A stretch of 64,000 bases of DNA from positions 15,748,001-15,812,000 of the forward strand of contig OX597842.1 in the NCBI GenBank assembly GCA_951406725.2. The letters are read 5' to 3'. A program made the translations under genes and the position numbers. The notes under the pieces were generated by a model, which did not search any database, was not told where the DNA came from, and saw only the letters and a list, made by a program, of their open reading frames with translations. Below are positions 33,165-64,000 of the stretch, piece by piece. The stretch is from Octopus vulgaris (Eukaryota). The stretch's first letter is position 1; each line of letters begins with the position of its first letter.

Positions 33165-34570
33165 AGCTACTCGAAAGCACCAGCCAGACTGCAAAGATTA
33201 CTGTTAAGGCTTCAAACATACGACTACGATATCAGGAAAAGTCCTGATATTGGCGGATGCTCTTTCCAGACTATCCTCACATGATAAACAGGAGATGGAA
33301 GGACTAAGCATAAGGGTCCACCACATTGTAAACATAACAACTACAAAGCTAGCTGAAAACAAAGAGGAGACCAGCAAAGATGAAGAACACCAGCTCCTTA
33401 CTCAGATGGTGATTCAGGGGTGGCCAGAAAAGAGACGTCAGGTACAGCCCCTCATTCGTGAATATTGGGCCATCCATGAAGATATATCAGTGGAGAATGG
33501 AATCCTGATGGCTGGATCTCCAATAATTATACCCAAGTCAATGCAAAAAGCGATTCTTGAAAAGATCCACCAAGGGCATCTAGGAATGTAGAAATGCAAG
33601 CTCCGAGCCAAGTCAGCAGTATATTGGGTAGGCATGTACAAAGATTTAGAAAAGACAGTTTCTACATGCCACATCAGTCAAAAGTACAGAAACTCACAAC
33701 AAAAGGAGGAAATGATATCTAGTGACATCCCAAGAAGGCCATGGCAAACTAATGGCGTAGATCTGTTCACGGAAAGCCAAGAATGCTACTACTCCAAATT
33801 TCCATTTGTGAGAAAAGTGAAAGACCTGAGAGCCAAAACAATCACTACAGTGGCTCGAGGACTTCTAGCAGAGCAAGGAATACCAGAGTAGATCATATGT
33901 GACAATGGAACCCAGTTCACATCGCAAGAATTCAAAAAGCTAGCCGATGAGTATGGGTTCAATATTACAACCTCATCTCCACACTACTCCAAGGATCATG
34001 GGTTTATAGAAAGACAGGTGCAGACAGTAAAGAGAACACTAGTCAAATGCCGAGAGACTAAGGAAGACCCACACCTGGCACTTCTGTCCCTACGAGCGAC
34101 CCACTCATAGCTGACATGAAATCCCCAGCAGAATTGCAGAGTGGCAGGAAGTACAAAACTACCCTGCCAACCAAGATCCAACCTCCTATTGACCAGGAAG
34201 AGACAAGGGCAAAGCTAGCTGCCACTCAAGAACAATCACAGAAATATTACAACAAACATGCACAATACTTACCTGAGATACTTGGAGGACAACATGTGCA
34301 TACTCAAGATGCCATAACTAAAACATGGATCCCAGCACAGGTTGTCAGTAGAGCTGAAAACCCAAGACCGTATATAATAGAAACGGAATCTGGTAGGCAG
34401 CTGAGACGCAAAAGGGCCCACATCCGCCCAACACCAAAGCTGTCGAGGACAACGTGTACAACACCTTTTGCATCGGTGACAACACCCACAGAATCAACAC
34501 CCCAACGGGCACCAACCACCCATCAGCAGCCCAACAACACACCTCAGACACCGGTACCACATCCTCGCAG
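33165..34570 (+). mobile_element. Gypsy pol fragment with integrase core (degenerate)
   Basis: LADALSRL, HQGHLGM*KC, PWQTNGVDLF, YYSKFP, GIPE*IICDNGTQF, HGFIERQVQTVK; several in-frame stops. Confidence 0.92.
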
Positions 34571-41275: not shown

Positions 41276-41990
41276 GCGGTGAATGAAATATTGTATGCGT
41301 CTCTTCAACTCTGTAGGCTCGCACATGCGTGACACATTTCTCATTATTCTGACGAGGTCTGCCATCAAAATATTGAATTTGGCATTGTCCATGATGGCTG
41401 AGTTCCGGTGGGTCAACTATTTGGAGGCCATAGGTTTGGCATAGTACGAATGAAGGATTTGGGTTTTATTATTCACAATTTTTAGCCAGAGTTCAGTTTC
41501 TAGTACTGGTAGTCTATGGTTGGGGTGTTTTGTGTGGTAGTCTATTGTGACCTTAATACTCTGGTCGATGGAGTTAGCTATTTGCTGGATGCTCTCCATA
41601 GTATTAGTTTCTATTACTATATCAACAGTACTCTCTTGTGGGGGTGCCTTTACCACTATGTTGATATCATCAACATAGCGAGAGTACATGTTTACGAGTA
41701 TGGAGTTCTGTGTCAGCCGTTCCTTAAGCCTTCTGTCCCACCATACCATGAAAAGTTTGGCCACATCACCGGCGATACTAACGCCGATTGCTGCCCCCTC
41801 ATCCTGGGCATATATTTTATTGTTAAACTTAAATGTGTGGCCTTTTAGGGTAACGCTTATACTAGCTCCTAGTGCATGTGCGATCATTTTCTTTACCTGA
41901 TAGACATAGATAGTATGGATCTGGTCTCTCCGCTCCATCTCTCTCTATGGGTCTTCCTAGTCATAGAATTACCTACGCCCCACAAGCGGG
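41276..41990 (-). mobile_element. Penelope-like reverse transcriptase fragment
   Basis: FKFNNKIYAQDEGAAIG, LFMVWWD, RYVDDI, LPVLET, HSYYAKPMAS. Confidence 0.88.
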
Positions 41991-42726
41991 CCTACAAAAT
42001 TATCAGAAGGCCCACTTGTATGATATCCTTCTACAGGATACCTCAAAGACAGGTGACAATGACTTCATCTTTGTGGCTGGAGATTTTAATGGGCATGACG
42101 GACGGTAATCTGGTGTTTTCCATGGTGTTCATGGGGATCCATGGAATTGGTTACAGAAACAAAGAGGGAACTAGGCTATTGGAGTTCCGTGATGCTAGCA
42201 ACCAACTGATCTGCAACACCAACATCAGGAAGCCAAGCAGCCACCTGATAACCTATCAATCATGCGACTCTGCTAGCCCGATTGATTTCATCCTCCCCAG
42301 ACAGCGGAATGCATGGTTGCTGTTAAATACAAATGCTCTGCTTGGTGAAGAATGTACTCCCCAGCATAGGCTAGTCATCAGTGACCTTCGATTCGAGGCC
42401 ACATGGATGCCAAGAAGCAGACCAATCCAGAAAAGAAGGATTTGGAAGCTTAAGAACCCTTCTTATGGTCAGAGATTTAGGGACATCCTCATTCAGAAAT
42501 TTAATGAGAGGGAAGAGAAGCTACAGATTTGTGACATAGAGGGTAACTGGAAATTCCTGCGTGACAGCTTACTGAGCACCACAGATCTAAAATCTGTGAC
42601 TGCAAAGTCCCTTCCAGATCTAGGGTAACGTGGTGCTGGAATAATACGGTAGACAAGACCATCAGAGCAATGAAATAGTCTTGGGAAACCTGGAAGAATA
42701 GCGATAGGGAGACTAGGAGACAGGTT

Positions 42727-42797
<71 letters not shown>

Positions 42798-43330
42798 AAG
42801 GGAGAAGCAGAAAATAGGTTTGCCAATGTTCAGCGATGTGAGGACCAAATAACCGAAGTATTTCGGATTAAAAGAAAGTATGCGAGAGAGAATTGTGATG
42901 TCACAGGACAGACATGTGTTCGCGTGGATGATGGTGCACTTCAGTTTAATGAATCTGCAAAGAAAGAGGCTTGGAGATGCCACTATGAAAGACTGATGAA
43001 TGTGGAGAATGAATGAGAGGATGGGAGCCTGCCAAATGTTGACCCAGTTGAGGGAGCAGCTACCAAAATCTATAGCAATCTGGTAGATAAAGCAATTAAG
43101 GATATTGAAGTTAGGGAAAGCCATCCGTCCATCAGGAATCACTGCTGAAATACTTAAAATATCTGGTGATGTGGGTTATAGTCTAGTCACCCGTATTGTA
43201 AATCAGGTGGTACACGAAGGAGTCACACCCAATGACTGGAGAAGCAGCCGAATAGTCAACTGCTACAAAGGTAAAGGTGATGCTTTAGATAGAAGTAACT
43301 ACAAAGGTAGCAAATTGCTGGATCAGGTGT
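41991..43330 (+). mobile_element. RTE-clade LINE fragment (endonuclease to start of RT), split by (TA)n
   Basis: GIGYRNKEGTRLLEF, ICNT, LITY, IDFIL, PQHRLVISD, KAIRPSGITAEILK, YKGKGDALDRSNYKG. Confidence 0.88.
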
Positions 43331-43779
43331 ATAATGATCAACGTTAATGATCATTATACTTATATTCTTAGAGATTTGATTTTTAATTCTTTTAATCCAT
43401 AACAATGTTATTCTGACCTGAGACATTCAGGGTACGTACCTAAAAATCATATCATGACAGACATCTGGCTACATAACAACAACAACTACAACAACAACAA
43501 CAACAACAATATCATATCAGAAAACTTAGGAAAGACCTTAGTAGTAAAAGAAACAAAAGTTTTCCCGTTTACTCACCTGTTTACAAATAAACAACGAAAT
43601 ATTTTATTTCTCTGTCCTAAAAGACATCATTAACTCTATTGTGTCTTCTTATTTATCCATTTTACCAACCACGTTAACCTGGATTTTATGAAATTTCAGT
43701 GGAATATTTAATAGAATCATATTAGAGCTAATCTCTCAAATAGAAATTCAGAACGGAACCAGATCTGACAATTCTGAAA

Positions 43780-45120
43780 CGAATGGCCAGAAGCAAAATA
43801 GTCACCTTCCTTGAGGAAAATGACTTGCTGGCTGACACCCAACATGGTTTCCCACCAGTAAGAAGCTGCCTGACTCAGCTCTTACAAGATTATGACTGGG
43901 TACTGAAACAGCTGCTCAACCACTCAAATGTGGAAGTCATATATCTGGACTTTGCAAAGGCCTTTGATAAAGTTGATCATGGAATGAAATGTCACAAACA
44001 GCGTGATCTCGGCATAGTCGGAAAATTGAGAGAATGGCCGAATGACTTTCTGAAGGATAGAATTCAGGTGGTAGTAGCCAATGGGGCCACCTCCAATGAC
44101 ATGCAAATAGTGAGTGGTGTTCAACAAGGCACTGTTTTGGGGCCACTACTGTTCATAATGGCCATCTCAGATATGCCCTCAGCCACGCTGAGAGCTACAA
44201 TCACAAGTTATGCAGATGATACAAAAGTCTTACAGGTGATACAGAACCTTGAAGACACTTTGCACCTGCAACACGAGAAGGATGAAAGGATAGCATGCGG
44301 TTTAATGCTGAATAGTTTCAAGACTTTTTCTATCAGCATGCAAAACTATATGCAATACCCAATAAATACACTGGACTTGGAGGGATTGCAATCCTAGAGA
44401 CACAGTCAGTGCGAGACCTGGGTATTTACATGAGTAATGATGCATCTTACCATGTTCATGTTGCTAAGTTGGCAATGAAACGCAGGTGACTGACTGGATG
44501 GATTCTTAGAACTTTTCGAACAAGAGACCAGGAAAACATTATGTTCCTCTGGAGGGCACTTGTCCTAAACCACTTTGACTATTGCTCTCAGCTATGGTTA
44601 CCAACCATTGTCACATTAATTTCAGGACTTGAGGTCATCCAACAAAGCTACACGAAGCTACCCTTTATGCAGCATATACGTTACTGGGAAAGACTCAAGA
44701 GATTAAGACTCAATTCCTTAGAGCGTAGGCGAGAAAGATATGTCATAATACACATCTGGAAGACATGTCCCAAACTTTAGCATCGAGAGTTACACAAATA
44801 CTAGAACAGAGCGCCTCTGCAACAGCCTGGGATTCAGGGGACCACATCTCTTCAATATCCTCCCGAATGACCAGAGAGACCTGCATGGGGTGGATGTAGG
44901 TATCTGCAAAATGAAACTGGACCTCTTACTGTCAAGTGTTCCTGATAAACCAACTTCATAGTAGGAGGTGCAGATGAGGGCTGCGGCATTAAACTCCCTC
45001 ACGCACCAAATGTCACTTTCTAAAAGAATTAGTGAAGTAAAATTACGTAGCAACACCATTTGGCGGTGCCACAACATGGCAACAACACATGAGCTGAAAC
45101 TAAATCAAATCTAATCAATT
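43780..45120 (+). mobile_element. CR1/Jockey-like LINE RT and 3' end
   Basis: QHGF..RSCLTQL, YLDFAKAFDKVDH, SGVQQGTVLGPLLF, YADDTK, DYCSQLW, LERRRER; (AAATC)-like tail at about 45100-45120. Confidence 0.92.
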
Positions 45121-46262: not shown

Positions 46263-46722
46263 TATATCGCTATATGATACACAAAGAGGAAGGACATTAA
46301 TATTTCTGTACCAGATATTCTACTCTTAGCTATAAATTAAGGCAAGTAACTGTCAATATACCAGAGGATATTAAAACTGCTTTTATAACAATGGGAGTGT
46401 TTAGGGAGGTGATTAGATATACAGCAACAACAACAAGTGGACATTTCAAAGTTTATCTCTATTTCAAACATTAATCTCTAGCAAGAAAGTCAAATCATTC
46501 AGGGAGTTTTTCTGTGATCTATAGACGTGCTACAATTAGTAGCTGAATCCTCTTCGATTCGCAATTTATCACCTTAAACAAGGACACATTGGACAATGTG
46601 CGTATGGGTTGTTAATAATTAGGATAAGGATAGGATGGTCCTGGATGGAAGGCATTTGATCATGGGTATCTGTTGGCGAAGCTAGACCTTGGACTTAAGA
46701 AGATCAGCAACTACACAGAGAT

Positions 46723-46928
46723 TCAGTTTTTGTCCAGCGATAGACATTCAAGGGCATTATAACATTCAGCTTCTTCAAGAGCTGCTTTTATTGTTTCAGC
46801 TGTACGTCTCTTTGGATCACAACTTGTGAACCATTTGTACATCATCTGATAGCTCTGTTCTACAATGTCATTACTATTGTCACGCTTGATAATTTCCAGC
46901 TCAGAAGTTTTAATATCCAAGAAAATAC
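46723..46928 (-). CDS. Last exon: death-domain C-terminal part of the ankyrin-RING-death-domain gene
   Basis: ttttgcag acceptor; (G)IFLDIKTSELEIIKRDNSNDIVEQSYQMMYKWFTSCDPKRRTAETIKAALEEAECYNALECLSLDKN*; phase matches the previous exon. Confidence 0.9.
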
Positions 46929-49065: not shown

Positions 49066-49137
49066 CAACTTTCCACCATTCACCACCTAACCGAAGTGCC
49101 ACTTTCAGGAGATCCTTCTCTTCCAGTTTTTGAGAAT
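49066..49137 (-). CDS. 72-nt exon: death-domain N-terminal helices
   Basis: tttcag|..|gtgagt; (D)SQKLEEKDLLKVALRLGGEWWKV(G) matches the death-domain L..VA..LG.EW..LG pattern. Confidence 0.9.
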
Positions 49138-49678
49138 CTGAAATAAATACCTGCATGGTTTACATTTTATAGTAATTTTTTTTAATGTTTATTAATAAAA
49201 TAATAAGCACCATCCGAAAATGGCCGATACTGGTGCCGCCTTGACTGGGTTCTGTGCTGGTGGCACGTAAAAAGCACCAACTGATTGTGGCCGTTGCCAG
49301 CCTCCCATGGCATCTGTACCGGTGCACATAAAAAGCACCCACTACACTCCCGGAGTGGTTGGCGTTAGGAGGGGTATCCAGCTGTAGATACACTGCCAGA
49401 TCAGACTGGGGCCTAGTGCAGCCTCCTGGCTTCCCAGACCCCGGTCGGACCGTCCAACCCATGCTAGCATGGAAAGCGGACGTTAAACGAACGAACGATG
49501 ATTGCAACACACACCTGCTTAAACAACAACCAATCAACAAAAATGCAAAACAAAGAATAACAGTCATTAATTCACCTGTTCAAACTTAAACAACAGCATA
49601 TTTTACTCTTGTCTTCCAAAAGACAATATTAACTCTATTGTATCTTCTAATTTATCCATTTTAAACAACTGTGCTAAC

Positions 49679-50173: not shown

Positions 50174-50224
50174 CACCTGGCTCTGTCTCTGTCTGGACTT
50201 CCTTCTCCTCAAACTTTGAACTCA
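50174..50224 (-). CDS. 51-nt phase-1/1 exon (V)SSKFEEKEVQTETEPG
   Basis: tttcag|..|gtgagt, open frame, paralogous to 50889-50939 and 55522-55572. Confidence 0.85.
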
Positions 50225-50550
50225 CTGAAATAAACACTTCAAAGTTTTACACATTGTTCTATGATTGCCTTATCTTTATTAACAATCTGTATTTCATTAT
50301 TGGGAGTACAATGACACACTGCCTGCGAGGTCAATACCAAATATCTGTATAGCGTCTGATTAATGAACATGCAAACTTCATTACAATGAATATGATTGTC
50401 TCTCAGCAATGGTCGACTATGCTTTTGGTCAATATTTTTTGTACTTTTTACTCACCTTTTTAGTTCCTGCTCCAAAAGACAATATTATCTCTAGTGCGTC
50501 TTCTAATTTATCGATTTTATGACATTTCAGTAATATCTTTAATAGAATTA

Positions 50551-50750
50551 CGGAGATGTACTGGCATAGCAAGTGACCTGATCAGAGATCGTGTGCTGGA
50601 ACGAAAACAATTGCAGCATGGAAGGTGTTTATAAGCCATTTAAGAAACACAAAAACCGTTAGATTCACTTCAACATTTAAATTCAATTTGTCAAAATATT
50701 TTCCTCGCTTTGAGACTGTGACCTGTTCACTGACACAACTCTGTGCTGCA
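50551..50750. mobile_element. 200-bp insertion with 13-bp TSD
   Basis: TTTAATAGAATTA at 50538-50550 and 50751-50763; absent from the paralogous intron units. Confidence 0.8.
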
Positions 50751-50888
50751 TTTAATAGAATTATTTTAGTTAACCTTTCAAATAGAAATTATGAACGGAA
50801 TCTATTCTCAGTCATTCTGACAAATAAAATGGCTGCGGTGAAAGTAAAAGTTATAGAAAGCAATTCGGTACTATCATTTTATACTCAC

Positions 50889-50939
50889 CAAATGGTTCTG
50901 TCACTGTCTGGACCCCCTTCTGTTTAAACTTTGGACTCT
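50889..50939 (-). CDS. 51-nt phase-1/1 exon (E)SPKFKQKGVQTVTEPF
   Basis: tttcag|..|gtgagt, open frame. Confidence 0.85.
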
Positions 50940-52249
50940 CTGAAACAAGACAAATATTTTCAAGCTTTAAATTAAAATGTTTCTTATTTGAGTCAATATA
51001 ACAAATTTTTTACTTTTTTTTTGTCTTTGGTCGGGAAGTGTTATTTCTTATTTGCCTCAAATTAGAAATCAAAGGAAATGGCTACTGTTCCTTTCAAACT
51101 TTGTCTTTCTGACCGGGGACGTTTTCAAACTGACCAATTTACCATTACATCTGAGACAGAAATATCCTTGTGTTCTGCTCTATACCACAAATCTGTTTAT
51201 CAATTGCCTGACGTTAACCACTTGAACGTGTCCCTTAATGGCTGACAATATGTGCATCTCTGATCATGAGCAGGAGTAGTGAGGGAGCATCAGAGATATG
51301 TGCTAAGAGGGGATTTGGGGATTTTTAAAAAATAAATATAACAAAAGCAAACTTTGAAGGAAATATTCGCCATTTTGCATAGATTCTCAGGTTAAGCAAA
51401 CAGGAAATAACAGTTACTAGCCAAGGATAAATGTCGTGTTACACAGGGTAACTAGTATTTCATTATTGTGAAACTTTCTTATCATCAATGGTTAAAGGCT
51501 GGTATTGTGTAACAGCCCAGCATTTAGATCCACGACAAAGTAGACTAACCTTCCTAAACCTCCCCACTTTAGTCCCTTAGTTTTGTATTTTCTTATATCT
51601 GTGACACATCTATGACTTGTCATTGTCCTGTCTACTCTATACTTTACTAACAAACATTCCCCTCCTCTTCAGCTTAATTCCACCGTCAACTGAGTCAGTC
51701 ATTGAGGATCGAGCCAAATATACGATACACCACATCAGGTAGGATAAACACACACTTGCTCTCTTTGTTAGACGTTGCTGCTGGTAACCTTTAATTTGAA
51801 CTTCCTGCATCACAGTTCACCAGAATATTATCTGAGTCAAGAAACATTTGAACACTCCTTAATAAAGAAGTTTTCTCTCCAGGTGAGCAATGATTAGATT
51901 TATACAGATGGAACAGCAGAAAGTGGTTTCAGGTGTCCTAAAACACTGTACACTTGTACAAAACATCATTAACTACACATAACTGTTCATCAACCCCATA
52001 TTGCAATGAACATATCTGAAATGGTACGTAATAAATGATACTAAAGTATAAAGGTTATTTCTGTCAAACCTCATTTAGAAATTAATCAAATTTTGCGACC
52101 CTTTTGAGGTCCCTTTATCAATGACGTATACTTCAATAAGGTGGAAACCTACTTACCAGAAAATTTGAGGATATAGTTGCTAGAATAAAAATTGGCTGGG
52201 TAAAGTTCAGAGATATTATTTTTGTTGGTAACAAAGGGCCTCTCCCTAA

Positions 52250-52660
52250 GAGTGGAAAGCAGATTGGATGAAAGATAGGCTGTGGACATAAAAGACATGC
52301 AAAGGGTTGGAGACAAATGAAGCCAACATGCTCCACTGGATGTACAACATCAGTGTTCAGGTAAGTCACAGTGGAAATATCTTAAGAGAAAATCTAGGTA
52401 TAAGAGTCATCCGATGTAGAGTTCAAAAGAGCGATCTTTTATAGTATGGTCATGTGATGCATATGGATGAGGTGATCAGCATAAAGAGATGCGGATCTAT
52501 AAATGTGGAGAGAACCTCAGGAGGACATGGGACAAATTGGTAAGAAATGATCTTCAGATGTTGGGCCTCACACGGGAGGTGATTAAAACGACTGAGACAA
52601 TCAGTAATTTGCTGTGCATGGAAAGACCCACCTGGCTAAGTAAAGCTGAGGCCATAAAGG
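52250..52660 (+). mobile_element. RTE-like LINE 3' fragment
   Basis: YGHVMHMDE-like segment and LRRTWDKLVRNDLQMLGLT. Confidence 0.65.
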
Positions 52661-53064
52661 TATGTCCTTCATGTGCATACCACCCGTCTTAAAACAAACC
52701 ATCCGTCATACACCTAACAAACATTCCACGCTTCCCATCCTTCCAACACGCCTTTCCCCAACAAGATCCCCACCGGCTGCATACTTCCCCATGTACCTAT
52801 CTGCATATATCTCTCGTTTGAATCTCTTCTCCTCAGCGTATCCTCTCAATACCCCAACCCTCTAGAATTCAATAGAAGGTAACAAGGTGTACAATGTTAG
52901 GTTAGGATACAAGGTGATGCTATCACAAAATAAGGTTAATATTTCTGACATACAAGGTAAAGAAAATTAATCAATGATAGCTAATTAATTATCGTGTTAA
53001 TGGTGTATATAGGCAGTTCAATGACACATACCCGAGAGTGCAATACTAAATATCTGTGTAGCTT

Positions 53065-53455
53065 ATATATAAACAATCTATATAAACAATAACTCTGAGC
53101 ACATTTTCAAACTCCACCCGTCTAACACCCGAGGACATATTTACAAAGTCAGAAAACAGTACAGCTCCCATGACTTTCGGAAACATTTTTTCACGCTAAG
53201 AGTTGCTGAAGCATGGAACAAACTGCTGTTATCAGTTGTTAGTTGTCGGAGCACTGCATCCTTCAAAACATCCATGCTTCCCGAGATTCGCCAACACTAC
53301 ACCTGATTCTCCCCTCCATACACACGCAAACATGTATCTGACTCATACATTGTTCGCTTTCCAGACATTTGTACATTACTGCATATGCTTTATACGCACT
53401 TTTGACAAGTTGTGGTGCACCTGAGCACTGTATACAATAATTTCATTATTATTAT
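53065..53455 (+). mobile_element. CR1/L2-like LINE 3' end with (ATT)n tail
   Basis: TRGHIYK..FRKHFFTLRVAEAWNKL motif; matches 22665-23010. Confidence 0.8.
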
Positions 53456-53907
53456 TTTTTAATGAACATGTGACCTTCCTTATAACGAATATGATTGTGT
53501 CTCGGCACATTTGATATTATGGGAGTTCCACGAGCAACAAAAGAAAAATATTACCATATAGAGTGTCAAACACTTATAATTTATTATCCTCGTTAAATAA
53601 CAACGACCATGTTTCATGATCTAATCTGAACATAAGAATAAAGTCAGAACTAAAACCAAAATGTGAAAGGCTCAGAAAACTGTGCCTCTGTTAGCATCAA
53701 TATCATCTAAAAACCAACAAATGTGAGTAACAGAATGTATAAATGGATGGTAAATGTTATCTAGACAATGTAGTAAATGTGTATTATATGCAGTTACCGA
53801 CAAGGAATTGTGTGTTCTAGTCAAACTGGGAACCCATATTCTATTCCTATCTGTATATTTTATGTTCATACCAAAAGGTATTAACATAAAACATACAGAT
53901 AGGAATA

Positions 53908-54072
53908 GGCACATGAGTGGCTGTGTGGTAAGAAGCTTGATTCCCAAACATATGGTTCCAGGTTCAGTCCCACTTCATGGTATTTTGGGCAAGTGTCTTC
54001 CACTATAGCCTCGAGCCGAGCAAAGCCTTTTGAGTGGACTTGGTAGATGGAAACTGAAAGAAGCCTGTTGTA
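53908..54072 (+). mobile_element. 5' half of a tRNA-derived SINE
   Basis: gagtggctgtgtggtaag..ggttcagtccc..ttgggcaagtgtcttc. Confidence 0.8.
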
Positions 54073-54080
54073 TATGTACA

Positions 54081-55050
54081 TCTATATATATAAAACTGAG
54101 AATGTATATGTATGGTTGTCTGTGTGTGTGAATCCCTAAAACTAAAGAAGTACCCTGCCAATTTCATTCAAATTTTACACATGCCTTACTTAGGGTCCAT
54201 GGAGTGTCATGGGCGAAAAAAAGTCTTCAACTTCTTGCCTAATGGGGGCCCAAGGGCGGATAAACCGCATTTCAAAGCATTTTGGGCAGCGTTAAAGCCC
54301 GTAACTTGAAGAGCATGCAGCCACTTTTCTCCAAATTTGCAACAAACATTAATCAGGCCCCTCGAAATGCTGTTGGCAAAAAACAATTTCAGAAGCCGAC
54401 TATGAGTCCTCTACAAAATGCAGATTAATCAGATTTGAGTATACTACACTGGGTTTTATTGTGGTTTTGGGCCATTTTCCGCCGATAAAATATTGACAGT
54501 ATTTATGCATTATAAGTAGCGTATAATATTTTATGAAAAGCTTTTTGTCCAATTTGGCAGAGAAAACGGGAAGAACATTAAAATTTTTGATGCTGCTTGT
54601 TATCCCCGCACCACCGGGTCATGTACATGTGTGTCTGAGCGGCCAGGTAAATGCACGTATGAGTATGTGTGTGTACTTGTGTGTGCATGGTTCGGTAAAG
54701 GCACAACAAACTCCAGAAGTGCCCTTTTGATGTTTCACGTTTCCAATCCCATGCAGTGCAGCATGGCCCAATAGCATGTCTGCTTTCTATGTCATCCATA
54801 TCTGAACTATACAATGCAAAATGTTCATACGAGAAAATAAACTGTTGTGACTTACAGTCATTCGAGTTTGACTGCGTGACCATTTCCGGAAGCTACGCTT
54901 GTCACCTACAATTAATCCACCTTGTGCCCCCCCCCCCGTTTAGTTGGACGAGTAAATAAGGAATTAATTATGAATTGAGTGAAATTAGACACATTTTTAA
55001 AACTCACTTCTATTTATGTTTATTATGTTTAAAATGTGTTAAAAGTGTAC
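54081..55050 (+). mobile_element. Possible non-autonomous Helitron
   Basis: Starts TCTATATATATAAAA followed by tgtctgtgtgtg (Helitron-like 5' end); 3' boundary uncertain. Confidence 0.4.
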
Positions 55051-55521
55051 AAATTTTGAATGTTGTTTATAATTTTGTTTTCATTCCTGTTGGACCCCAC
55101 AATTCTCAATTTGGCGGCAATCTTTTTCTTTACCTTCATTTCCAAGATTAAGCAACATATTACAACATACATCTGGCTGCATAACAGCAACAACAACAAT
55201 AACTTATCAGAAAACTTACAAAAGATCTTTATAGAAAAACAAACAACTTTCTTATTAACTCACACGTTTACACCTCAACAAAAATAGATTTTAGTTCCCT
55301 CTTCCAAAAGACAATATTGAATCTAATTTATCCATTTTACCAACCATGTTAACCTTGACTTTATAAACTTTCAGTAACATTTTTGATACAGTTACTTTAC
55401 ATCTAACCTTTCAAATGGAAATTAGAATTGGGATTTGTTCTCCACCATTCTAATAAGCAAAACAGCTCAGGTGAATGTAAAATGTATAGAAATCAATTAA
55501 GAGTTGTTATTTCATACTCAC

Positions 55522-55572
55522 CAACTGTCTTTGTCACAGTCCGCACTTCCTTCGTTTCAACCTTTGCAGTCT
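55522..55572 (-). CDS. 51-nt phase-1/1 exon (E)TAKVETKEVRTVTKTV
   Basis: tttcag|..|gtgagt, open frame. Confidence 0.82.
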
Positions 55573-56565: not shown

Positions 56566-56705
56566 CAACTTCACTTTTGCTTGTTACAAGTTTCCGACAC
56601 TTCAGGCATCGTTGAAGTGGAACGATTGAACATTGCTTAGATATCAAAAGATGTTCGCATGGATGGTATTTTATGGTTGCTGTTCTATTTCTGCACCGCA
56701 AACAT
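56566..56705 (-). CDS. RING-finger exon (C3HC4-type; fifth ligand is Ser)
   Basis: gcacag|A TGT..|gtaag; CLRCRNRTATIKYHPCEHLLISKQCSIVPLQRCLKCRKLVTSKSEV; 140 nt, phase 2 to phase 1. Confidence 0.9.
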
Positions 56706-59476: not shown

Positions 59477-59652
59477 ACTGGGGGTAAAAATGTTTGTAAT
59501 TTTTCTCTCAAATTTGAATTCTTAATGAGGTCCAATGGTGTGTTATTCTTGTCATTTTTATAGTAAAAGTCGGCTCCCTGACCGGCTAGATATCTAGCCA
59601 CCACAGTGCCAGAGAGCCTTTCTTCCTTTCTCAGGTCCAGCTCATTGCAGTA
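59477..59652 (-). CDS. Exon: last ankyrin repeat region
   Basis: tttgtag|..|gtaagt; YCNELDLRKEERLSGTVVARYLAGQGADFYYKNDKNNTPLDLIKNSNLREKLQTFLPP; 176 nt; resembles the MIB1/MIB2 pre-RING ankyrin repeat. Confidence 0.9.
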
Positions 59653-61158: not shown

Positions 61159-61368
61159 CTCATCTAAAATATCCATCGTTATGCCCTCGGAATCAAACAT
61201 ATCATTTTTAACAGCAAGGTGCAAACAAGTGTTACCTTCACCATCAACAACATTTATGCTTGCTCCTCGGTCTATTAATTTGTGCATCATTCCGAGGTGA
61301 CCTTGGGAGACGGTTTCAAGCAAAGGAGTCATTTCCTTATGGTTCTTCTTATCCAGTTTTACCGAATC
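61159..61368 (-). CDS. Ankyrin-repeat exon (acceptor position uncertain)
   Basis: DSVKLDKKNHKEMTPLLETVSQGHLGMMHKLIDRGASINVVDGEGNTCLHLAVKNDMFDSEGITMDILDE|gtaag. Confidence 0.88.
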
Positions 61369-61705
61369 TTTTGTGGAGGTAAAAATAGAAAATGAAAACT
61401 TACATGAAAATTCGGATGGATATCAATGTGTCATAAGTGTCTTATACTGAGTTCTTGATCAAACCGATCAGATACATTTCATGTTTGTCAGAGAAACTAA
61501 ACTTCTATTACGACCCTGTATAAGTTGCTTTGTGTTAGAGGCATGGTAAATCTATTCAGATGTAATAAATGGATTGTTTCCACTTAATCTACATTTATCC
61601 CTCACTAAAAGTAAGCTTTAGGGAGTTGAACAAGAGTGAATGCATGATTAACAGATCAAGTCTAGGAAAGAAGAATTATAATTTCTAAGGTATACTTTTG
61701 ATATC

Positions 61706-62768: not shown

Positions 62769-62805
62769 CTGGGACAGCATCAAAGTCACCACATCATGGT
62801 GTCGC
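62769..62805 (-). CDS. 37-nt ankyrin exon (K)RHHDVVTLMLSQ
   Basis: ttttcag|G CGA..CAG|gttagt; completes the ankyrin repeat begun in the upstream exon (phase 2 match). Confidence 0.8.
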
Positions 62806-63711: not shown

Positions 63712-63869
63712 TTTCGAACTGCCAGATGCAGAGGTGTGTCACCATCTTTGTCCATTGCATTGGCATCGATGCCGTCGTGATTCAATAAGAGGCGAACTGT
63801 GTCTATGTGTCCCTGGAAACAGGCAAAGTGAAGAGGTGTAGCACCAAAGGAGTTATCTCGTTGATTCAC
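63712..63869 (-). CDS. Ankyrin-repeat exon
   Basis: ttttccag|VNQRDNSFGATPLHFACFQGHIDTVRLLLNHDGIDANAMDKDGDTPLHLAVR|gtaagt; two TPLH motifs. Confidence 0.93.
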
Positions 63870-64000
63870 CTGGAAAAGAAAAGAATGAAAACATTAAAAA
63901 TGGCGCCTGAAGGGTGGGTGAGGGGAGAATCATTAAAAGAAAAACTGCACAGAGAAAGAGAAGAAAAACATCAAATTATTTAAACAAGTGGAATGACTGG

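Follow-up and report, generated by a model that had tools for sequence, protein, structure and literature searches.

An octopus family of ankyrin-RING-death-domain proteins carries, between its RING and death-domain exons, short exons that are homologous to the first death-domain exon (DD exon 1), are spliced in frame, and in many cases encode a K-x-V/T-Q-T motif predicted to bind LC8 (DYNLL), a dimer-forming hub protein. We favor, with moderate confidence, the explanation that the number and inclusion of these exons tunes the pairing of ankyrin-RING-death-domain chains. The evidence comes from one gene in the window (the whole 64,000-nt stretch of Octopus vulgaris DNA analyzed here) and from its paralogues and relatives.

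Linker Exons and Their Splicing

Three exons of 51 nt each, all in phase 1-1, lie on the minus strand between the RING and the death domain, bordered by tttcag and gtgagt, as an earlier note on this DNA had proposed; coordinates and splice joints both confirm the arrangement. E1 (55522..55572; TAKVETKEVRTVTKTV) encodes KEVRT at 55538-55552, E2 (50889..50939; SPKFKQKGVQTVTEPF) encodes KGVQT at 50905-50919 with Val at +2, and E3 (50174..50224; SSKFEEKEVQTETEPG) encodes KEVQT at 50190-50204 with Glu at +2. Each exon opens with two nucleotides of a split codon, closes with one, and forms with its flanks a unit that is 73-77% identical to the others over ~200 nt (E 1e-26 to 1e-36). The linker, which the earlier note had called low-complexity, was found to be short and charged and not strongly low-complexity.

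Splice joints were read from Logan contigs of four public runs, the RNA status of which is a guess, none being recorded as RNA. The RING-E1 joint (55572/56566, CT..AC) and the E2-E3 joint (50224/50889, CT..AC) each occur in two of these presumed RNA runs (X1 and X6), the joint of E3 with DD exon 1 (49137/50174, CT..AC) in three (X1, X3, and X6), and that between the two death-domain exons in all four. The exon reads and contig joints bear out, for E1-E3, the modular design of one motif per exon and its splicing. Among the matches listed for the four runs, neither the E1-E2 joint nor any skipping joint was found; because these contigs are only guessed to be RNA, neither their depth nor the lack of skip joints is informative. 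In-frame exon skipping, also anticipated in the earlier note, is supported by RefSeq models from two related species: in the O. sinensis counterpart, isoforms X2 and X5 skip E1 and isoform X3 skips E3, and single linker exons are skipped at three loci (the P0006, P0061, and P0049 sets) in isoform models of O. sinensis and O. bimaculoides.

Structure and Condition of the Window Copy

All exons of the gene lie on the minus strand. Past the linker come DD exon 1 (49066..49137; 72 nt, phase 1-1; SQKLEEKDLLKVALRLGGEWWKV), which has a second acceptor 13 nt upstream whose use shifts the frame and loses the death domain, and DD exon 2 with the stop codon (46723..46928); the Pfam Death hit on P0002 (residues 423-493) spans both and passes marginally, at 23.7 bits against a cut-off of 22.6. 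On the other side lies the C3HC4-type RING exon (56566..56705), which scores 15-17 bits with zf-C3HC4_3, below the cut-off of 27, and in which the fifth of the eight zinc ligands is Ser, not Cys; a frameshift suspected at first in this exon was not real. It is preceded by a coding exon at 59477..59652 (tblastn 100% to P0006 residues 269-327), a 210-nt ankyrin exon (61159..61368), a 37-nt ankyrin-region exon (62769..62805), and an ankyrin exon at 63712..63870 (5′ edge approximate), with three further 5′ coding exons 1.5-5.5 kb past the window end. Downstream of the gene, also on the minus strand, the intron flank from the donor side of the unit survives as a relic with no exon at 43568..43753 (blastn 72% over 186 nt, E 1e-24), adjoining an ORF (43744-44397) that we take to be a reverse-transcriptase-like remnant.

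This copy shows signs of decay, namely the RING Cys-to-Ser change and one lost ankyrin-exon acceptor, that of the 210-nt exon being AA instead of AG in this assembly. A 95% identical duplicate on C10 retains both the Cys and the AG; the Cys is also found in P0014 and P0015, and the AG in two other paralogues. Together with the Gln-to-Arg change in E1, these features would fit a family that does use LC8 motifs but in which the window copy is a decaying duplicate whose own motifs are now irrelevant. Against this, a run X1 contig carrying the joints from DD exon 2 through DD exon 1 to E3 shows 0 differences from the window over 46700-46926, the frame stays open when the 210-nt exon is skipped, and the O. 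sinensis counterpart, which has the same Ser, is annotated full length. Decay to irrelevance is possible but, in our estimation, unlikely, and it is compatible at the family level with the explanation that we favor.

Probable Origin from Death-Domain Exon 1

Besides E1-E3, a fourth homologous unit is present at 49066-49137, namely DD exon 1 itself. The linker exons agree with it at 20-21 of their first 35 nt (shuffles mean 10, p<=0.0003), and their flanks score 96-98 against it, versus 53±3. At the motif, KDLLK (AAG GAT CTC CTG AAA) and KEVQT (AAG GAA GTC CAG ACA) are separated by four single-base changes. From these alignments, the linker exons are likely shortened copies of DD exon 1, made by copying and shortening. 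Whole duplicates, 72-nt QT forms, shortened forms, and dead forms all coexist in one genome: the 72-nt QT exons have the same length as the DD exon, five whole or decaying DD-exon duplicates are also present, and the remaining linker exons (51, 54, 57, and 78 nt) differ from 72 nt by multiples of three. The earlier note mentioned neither the 72-nt homologue, the probable linker-exon origin in the death domain, nor the relic at 43568-43753.

In a tree of 37 representative rows of 107, from which the motif codons had been removed, a single origin of all linker exons was not rejected (p-AU 0.45); convergence, with 51-nt and 72-nt QT exons arising independently, is unsupported. The window's units sit on long branches (0.17-0.29) off a basal polytomy, so that the motif has persisted through considerable divergence of the flanks. 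Nor is there support for a special conserved element in the intron behind the donor: among 20 paralogues, conservation of the RING donor flank (median score 76) comes close to that of the linker-exon donor flank (84.5).

Two known processes are comparable, the shuffling of symmetric phase 1-1 exons and the de novo birth of short linear motifs. The octopus exons resemble them in their tandem, frame-preserving duplication and in a motif that would have arisen via few point mutations; unlike in those processes, the starting material appears to come from within the gene, as helix 1 of its death domain, and the stages coexist in the genome.

Family Size and Distribution

Death-domain exon matches number 145 in the octopus family, including some that are broken. 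Sampling of 64 regions in 10-kb windows yielded 88 linker exons, 0-7 per region and none in 26, the exon counts being lower bounds; variation in exon number among paralogues, as the earlier note had expected, is thus substantiated. The reading frame is kept in 83 of the 88, with no stop codon in any of them; all five frameshifted exons are on C29, and six units have a dead acceptor. Proteins of O. bimaculoides contain KEVQT and KGVQT too. Word-indexed protein searches returned just 3 and 5 relatives, every one from Octopus, and a HMMER search gave 48 matches, of which 23 were looked up (20 Octopus, 1 Argonauta). The ESM Atlas gave no usable feature match, just RING matches under the bar. A gene for an 89-residue LC8 is present in genome G000, at C25:23627325-23627594.

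In databases the family is labelled "MIB2-like", a name given by similarity only. MIB1 and MIB2 have N-terminal Mib/HERC2-ZZ and Mib-repeat domains and two or three RINGs. Ankyrin repeats followed by a zf-C3HC4_3-type RING are common to them and the octopus family; unlike them, the octopus protein has a single RING and then a death domain, and Pfam found no Mib/HERC2, ZZ, or Mib-repeat domain on P0002 (ankyrin, one RING, and Death only). No report of this family or of exon-encoded LC8 cassettes was found in the literature searched, which was mostly outside subscription journals.

Comparison with LC8 Binding Rules

The pattern [KR]x[TVSMI]QT occurs in 44 of 88 linker exons and in none of 41 death-domain exons. 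Motif quality was judged by published positional rules rather than by a scoring matrix. These rules place Gln at 0, flanked at -1 and +1 by mid-sized hydrophobic or hydrogen-bonding residues (PMC6607443); E2 and E3 (VQT) agree with the Gln rule, and E1 (VRT), with Arg at 0, is predicted to be a non-binder or spacer. A large or basic residue is expected at -3, a polar one at -4, and no bulky aromatic at -2 (PMC6607443), and the 63 distinct exons have K/R at -3 in 61, D/E at -4 in 58, and no aromatic at -2. At +2 the rules call for P, D, or E and not a hydrophobic residue, within a region expected to be disordered (PMC6607443), and hydrophobic +2 is a non-binder category in LC8Pred. The Glu of E3 fits, making E3 the best match among E1-E3, and the Val of E2 is disfavored by LC8Pred; of the 44 intact motifs, 20 have an acidic +2 residue and 23 have V or L. 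The linker lies between the RING and Death Pfam hits, with a pLDDT of 51 in the complex model.

Published LC8 binders with a like core include ZFPM1 SDKGVQTP, MAST1 RHQSVQTE, and Dync1i1 (dynein intermediate chain) YSKETQTP. Octopus EDKGVQTD, EEKEVQTE, and EVKETQTL share their K-x-V/T-Q-T core; a difference is the hydrophobic +2 residue, uncommon among binders, that roughly half of the motifs in octopus carry, and no VQTV peptide appears among the LC8 peptides in 13 of the 20 supplement files. By isothermal titration calorimetry many TQT peptides do not bind LC8, and Nup159 ENEVQTD is a listed non-binder although its AlphaFold model is confident.

In a structure model built with the O. sinensis linker, KGVQT docked in the LC8 groove (0.84 vs 0.13 for the best control), the E2 motif being picked over that of E3. 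Contacts agree between runs to 75% or more and the partner has a pLDDT of 51, with Q401 touching LC8 residues 36/62/63 and V400 touching 75/82/84. In calibration, 51 of 78 solved pairs reached the mark, as did 2 of 108 mismatched ones (39/65 and 2/126 in eukaryotes); peptides fall outside this calibration, and the pass may reflect memory because LC8-peptide complexes are already solved. The model supports canonical docking of KGVQT. The LC8 motif class proposed in the earlier note is supported by the KGVQT and KETQT peptides among listed binders, and is weakened by the Val at +2 in the KGVQT copy.

The multivalent LC8 clients ASCIZ/ATMIN, Chica, and Bassoon carry several QT motifs, and bivalency helps weak sites (PMC6607443). 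The octopus linkers are similar: they are short, lie outside any domain, and hold QT-anchored motifs of presumably unequal strength. Unlike in those clients, each octopus motif has a symmetric exon to itself, a homologue of one from a folded domain, copy number varies across the large gene family, and the predicted client is an ankyrin-RING-death-domain protein.

Tests of Selection on the Motif Codons

In DD exon 1, omega is 0-0.28 at helix-core positions -6, -1, +2, and +3 and 0.72-1.31 at -3, 0, and +1; in linker exons outside one clade, designated CPK, it is 0.08 at K-3, 0.23 at Q0, and 0.58-1.10 at helix positions. This shift (Fisher p=2e-8 over all linker exons, with helix positions picked after seeing the data) suggests that constraint moved off the helix core and onto the motif.

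A different reading is that the linker exons are neutral spacers: tolerated duplicates of DD exon 1, kept in frame only for linker length, with a QT inherited from one founder and now decaying. Since a single origin is not rejected, the exons may share QT by descent. Omega over the linker as a whole is 0.66-0.71, dead acceptors and frameshifts occur as counted above, and QT is lost in the KEVRT, KEAKM, KEDQQ, and KASQR lineages and is kept in just 5 of 24 exons of the CPK clade (on C29), where core omega is 1.6-2.9. Outside that clade, however, K-3, Q0, and T+1 show omega of 0.24-0.29 (p ~0.002 vs other codons), motif codons turn over synonymously (CAG/CAA, AAA/AAG), the sole -3 change is K to R, -1 changes in QT-keeping copies lead to T, S, or M, and the literature-defined core (-3, -1, 0, +1) is more conserved than other codons on two trees (p=0.019 and 0.012). 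The exclusion was chosen after seeing the data, and the conservation of QT across paralogues that the earlier note had named as a check is significant only under it: when all 63 distinct linker exons are taken, conservation of the core does not exceed that of other codons (p=0.28, and p=0.88 for QT by itself). Gene conversion and the mutability of CpG sites may have raised the parsimony counts. With the motif also outlasting flank divergence and recurring in O. bimaculoides, neutrality appears rather improbable.

It is more doubtful still that the residues are conserved for some other interaction or modification, for example as a TRAF or SUMO site or as a lysine near the RING that accepts ubiquitin: K-3, which adjoins the RING, is the most constrained codon even after QT loss (omega 0.12 over all linker exons; kept in 22 of 24 in the CPK clade), but the eight exons of the 78-nt clade have Arg at -3, which preserves the charge but cannot accept ubiquitin, and by eye the sequences do not fit the TRAF2, TRAF6, or SUMO consensus.

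Proposed Mechanism and Implications

Under the LC8-based explanation, an early duplicate of DD exon 1 would have lost its helix role and acquired QT through a few point changes, after which tandem duplication and duplication of genes would have multiplied it, its length changing from 72 nt by multiples of three (to 51, 54, 57, and 78 nt). Each intact motif is predicted to add a beta-strand in the LC8 groove, so that one LC8 dimer would bridge two chains and two motifs would form a short ladder. Bridging could set RINGs and death domains side by side, priming signalling through the ubiquitin ligase or the death domain; bridging would be weaker where an exon is skipped or its QT is lost, and anchor-dead copies (RT, KT, QA) may act as spacers.

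More tentatively, octopus may use an exon-level valency code, in which a death-domain helix turned LC8 cassette is added, mutated, deleted, or skipped over more than 100 ankyrin-RING-death-domain genes, setting dimerization thresholds. The origin and multiplication of short linear motifs are in general difficult to follow; in this case a single genome holds the source exon, the intermediates, and the dead copies, separated by countable point changes, and the birth of an LC8 site is therefore testable with peptides. The finding also provides a first mechanistic handle on this large family, and the natural series of 0-7 motifs offers a test of LC8 valency control over RING and death-domain activity. 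If true, this would be a traceable birth of a linear motif from a folded-domain exon, diversifying a signalling family that is specific to the lineage and probably acts in immunity or cell death.

Linker exons and splicing of the gene

Three exons lying between the RING and the death domain, as the earlier note had read them, are found on the minus strand at 55522-55572 (E1), 50889-50939 (E2) and 50174-50224 (E3), each 51 nt long, in phase 1-1 and bordered by tttcag and gtgagt. They encode KEVRT, KGVQT and KEVQT, respectively, and belong to paralogous exon-plus-flank units sharing 73-77% identity across ~200 nt. Four public runs, whose RNA nature is a guess, gave contigs containing canonical splice joints: RING-E1 in two of the four, E2-E3 in two, E3-death-domain exon 1 in three, and death-domain exon 1-exon 2 in all four; neither the E1-E2 joint nor any skip joint occurred among the matches listed for these runs. 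One contig from public run X1 reproduces window 46700-46926 with 0 differences and bears two of the joints. Some contigs could stem from a duplicate of the gene region (G000:C10:6537600-6568900 in the surveyed genome; ~25-30 kb, roughly 95% identity), in which RING ligands and acceptor are intact.

RefSeq isoforms, which are usually backed by transcript data, are in keeping with the suggestion of in-frame skipping, single repeats being absent from some in both O. sinensis and O. bimaculoides. At the O. sinensis locus, isoform X1 contains all three 17-residue repeats, the RT repeat is lacking in X2 and X5 and the EVQT repeat in X3, and a frameshifted tail, produced by an acceptor 13 nt upstream of death-domain exon 1, occurs in X4 and X5; two O. 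bimaculoides loci likewise have isoforms differing by whole repeats. The alternative acceptor lies at window 49138-49150 (minus strand), and the frameshifted form, a possible dominant-negative, keeps the QT motifs without the death domain. All four short exons are missing from the O. vulgaris protein record P0001.

The last exon is matched by identical proteins labelled 'MIB2-like' from Octopus vulgaris and O. sinensis. In the gene's protein, Pfam recognizes ankyrin repeats, a single C3HC4 RING scoring under the cut-off and, marginally, a Death domain; it finds no Mind bomb-specific domain. Separately from any family-level explanation, the window copy itself might be decaying, a doubtful but serious prospect: the fifth RING ligand is Ser, and a 210-nt ankyrin exon (window 61159-61369, minus strand) has AA rather than AG at its acceptor, although skipping this exon keeps the frame. 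Both the C10 duplicate and two paralogues read AG at that site. The AA could be an allelic variant, a sign of decay or a fault of the assembly, and it may be the reason for the gene being annotated as two in O. vulgaris.

Origin and spread of the linker exons

A fourth homologous unit holds the 72-nt first death-domain exon (49066-49137). Of the first 35 nt, 20-21 are shared between this exon and the 51-nt exons, compared with a mean of 10 in shuffles (p<=0.0003); the donor flanks are alike as well, scoring 96-98 against 53+-3. Only four single-base changes separate KDLLK (AAG GAT CTC CTG AAA) from KEVQT (AAG GAA GTC CAG ACA). We infer that duplication ran from death domain to linker, because what the death-domain exon encodes belongs to an old domain, because its length persists in the 72-nt QT exons, and because duplicates of it exist, intact or decaying. 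The tree test (37 of 107 rows) does not reject one common origin for the linker exons as a whole (p-AU 0.45). Clients that bind LC8 multivalently are already known, as is the duplication of symmetric exons; the publications listed by our literature searches included no account of this ankyrin-RING-death-domain family or of exons whose motifs arose from the helix of a death domain.

The last death-domain exon has at least 145 matches in the surveyed genome (150 of 163 candidates scored), some with stops. Sixty hand-picked matches with 10 kb upstream and four longer regions (64 in total) were searched with an intron-flank profile blind to exon sequence. Ten of 155 donor matches were discarded (in six the acceptor was dead, in two the donor was absent, one was a remnant, and one was an in-frame KEVQTP exon overlooked by the acceptor pattern), leaving 88 linker exons, 52 copies of death-domain exon 1 and five duplicates of that exon. 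Eighty-three of the 88 are in frame (33, 36, 48, 51, 54, 57, 72 or 78 nt); the pattern [KR]x[TVSMI]QT is present in 44. Because many windows end before the RING, region counts are lower bounds: at least 38 of 64 have a linker exon, at least 24 one or more intact motifs, and at least 15 two or more.

On contig C29 (regions L049, L059, L062, L078, L082 and L091), linker exons form micro-tandem arrays of <=7 copies with a period of ~150-170 nt, rapid QT turnover and some frameshifted copies. Tandem copies of death-domain exon 2, many and nearly all with stops, occupy G000:C1:216930652-216965055 and C1:102708591-102732827. The death-domain type of this family also turns up in O. bimaculoides proteins annotated as adhesion-GPCR-like, RIPK1 and PIDD-like (P0052, P0056, P0060, P0040) and in one Argonauta protein (P0053). 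Downstream of the gene, window 43568-44397 holds a relic of the unit's intron flank, adjoined by what we take to be a reverse-transcriptase-like remnant; further ORFs, presumably retroelement-like, lie at 33208-34110 and 41417-43347.

Selection on motif positions

Omega was estimated per position from parsimony counts over 63 linker and 41 death-domain exons, leaving out duplicates and 17 short, frameshifted or stop-bearing exons. With the motif Q as 0, positions -6, -1, +2 and +3 of death-domain exon 1 are constrained (omega 0-0.28) and -3, 0 and +1 are free; the linker exons show the inverse pattern (Fisher p=2e-8, all 63), the helix positions having been picked after the data were seen. The expected conservation among paralogues is borne out in part: of the 39 exons outside the CPK clade, the C29 micro-tandem group, 29 keep the motif, and only here, with the clade set aside after the data were seen, is the literature-defined core more conserved than other codons (p=0.019 and 0.012; two trees). 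Over all 63 the core shows no such excess (p=0.28), and the CPK clade keeps QT in 5 of 24, with core omega >1. Neutral spacers would suit these latter figures and sit poorly with the former, and we consider that account of the linker exons unlikely. Given this split, the motif seems to have been preserved in the majority of old lineages, with repeated inactivation elsewhere, E1 among the cases.

Candidate LC8 docking

The LC8 rules of PMC6607443 call for Q at 0, T/V-like residues at -1 and +1, K/R at -3, a polar residue at -4 and P/D/E at +2, where hydrophobic residues are disfavoured; a large number of peptides fail to bind even with the anchor, and weak sites are rescued by neighbours. The best fit is E3; E2 departs at +2, where it has Val, and the anchor of E1 fails, in line with its predicted non-binding as the Q-to-R copy. 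Binders in the searched portion of PMC12057147 (13 of 20 supplements) include ZFPM1 SDKGVQTP, MAST1 RHQSVQTE and Dync1i1 YSKETQTP; the Nup159 peptide ENEVQTD is a non-binder though confidently modelled, and the remaining supplements may hold further cases. That the conserved residues serve another ligand seems quite improbable.

The surveyed genome has an intronless gene for an 89-aa LC8. A model of two LC8 chains with two copies of the O. sinensis linker (residues 374-426) reached 0.84, and the best control 0.13. Among reference pairs, 51 of 78 solved ones and 2 of 108 mismatched ones came up to the pass mark. Agreement between runs extends to 75% or more of the contacts (partner pLDDT 51); residues 393-404 (KGVQT) occupy the LC8 groove in the model, with Q401 contacting LC8 36/62/63. 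Such complexes being already solved, the model shows likeness to them, not binding.

On balance, we favour the QT exons as probable LC8 docking cassettes. LC8 docking would hold two chains together, and the degree to which RINGs and death domains pair might then be tuned across the family by the number of exon copies, by point loss and by skipping.
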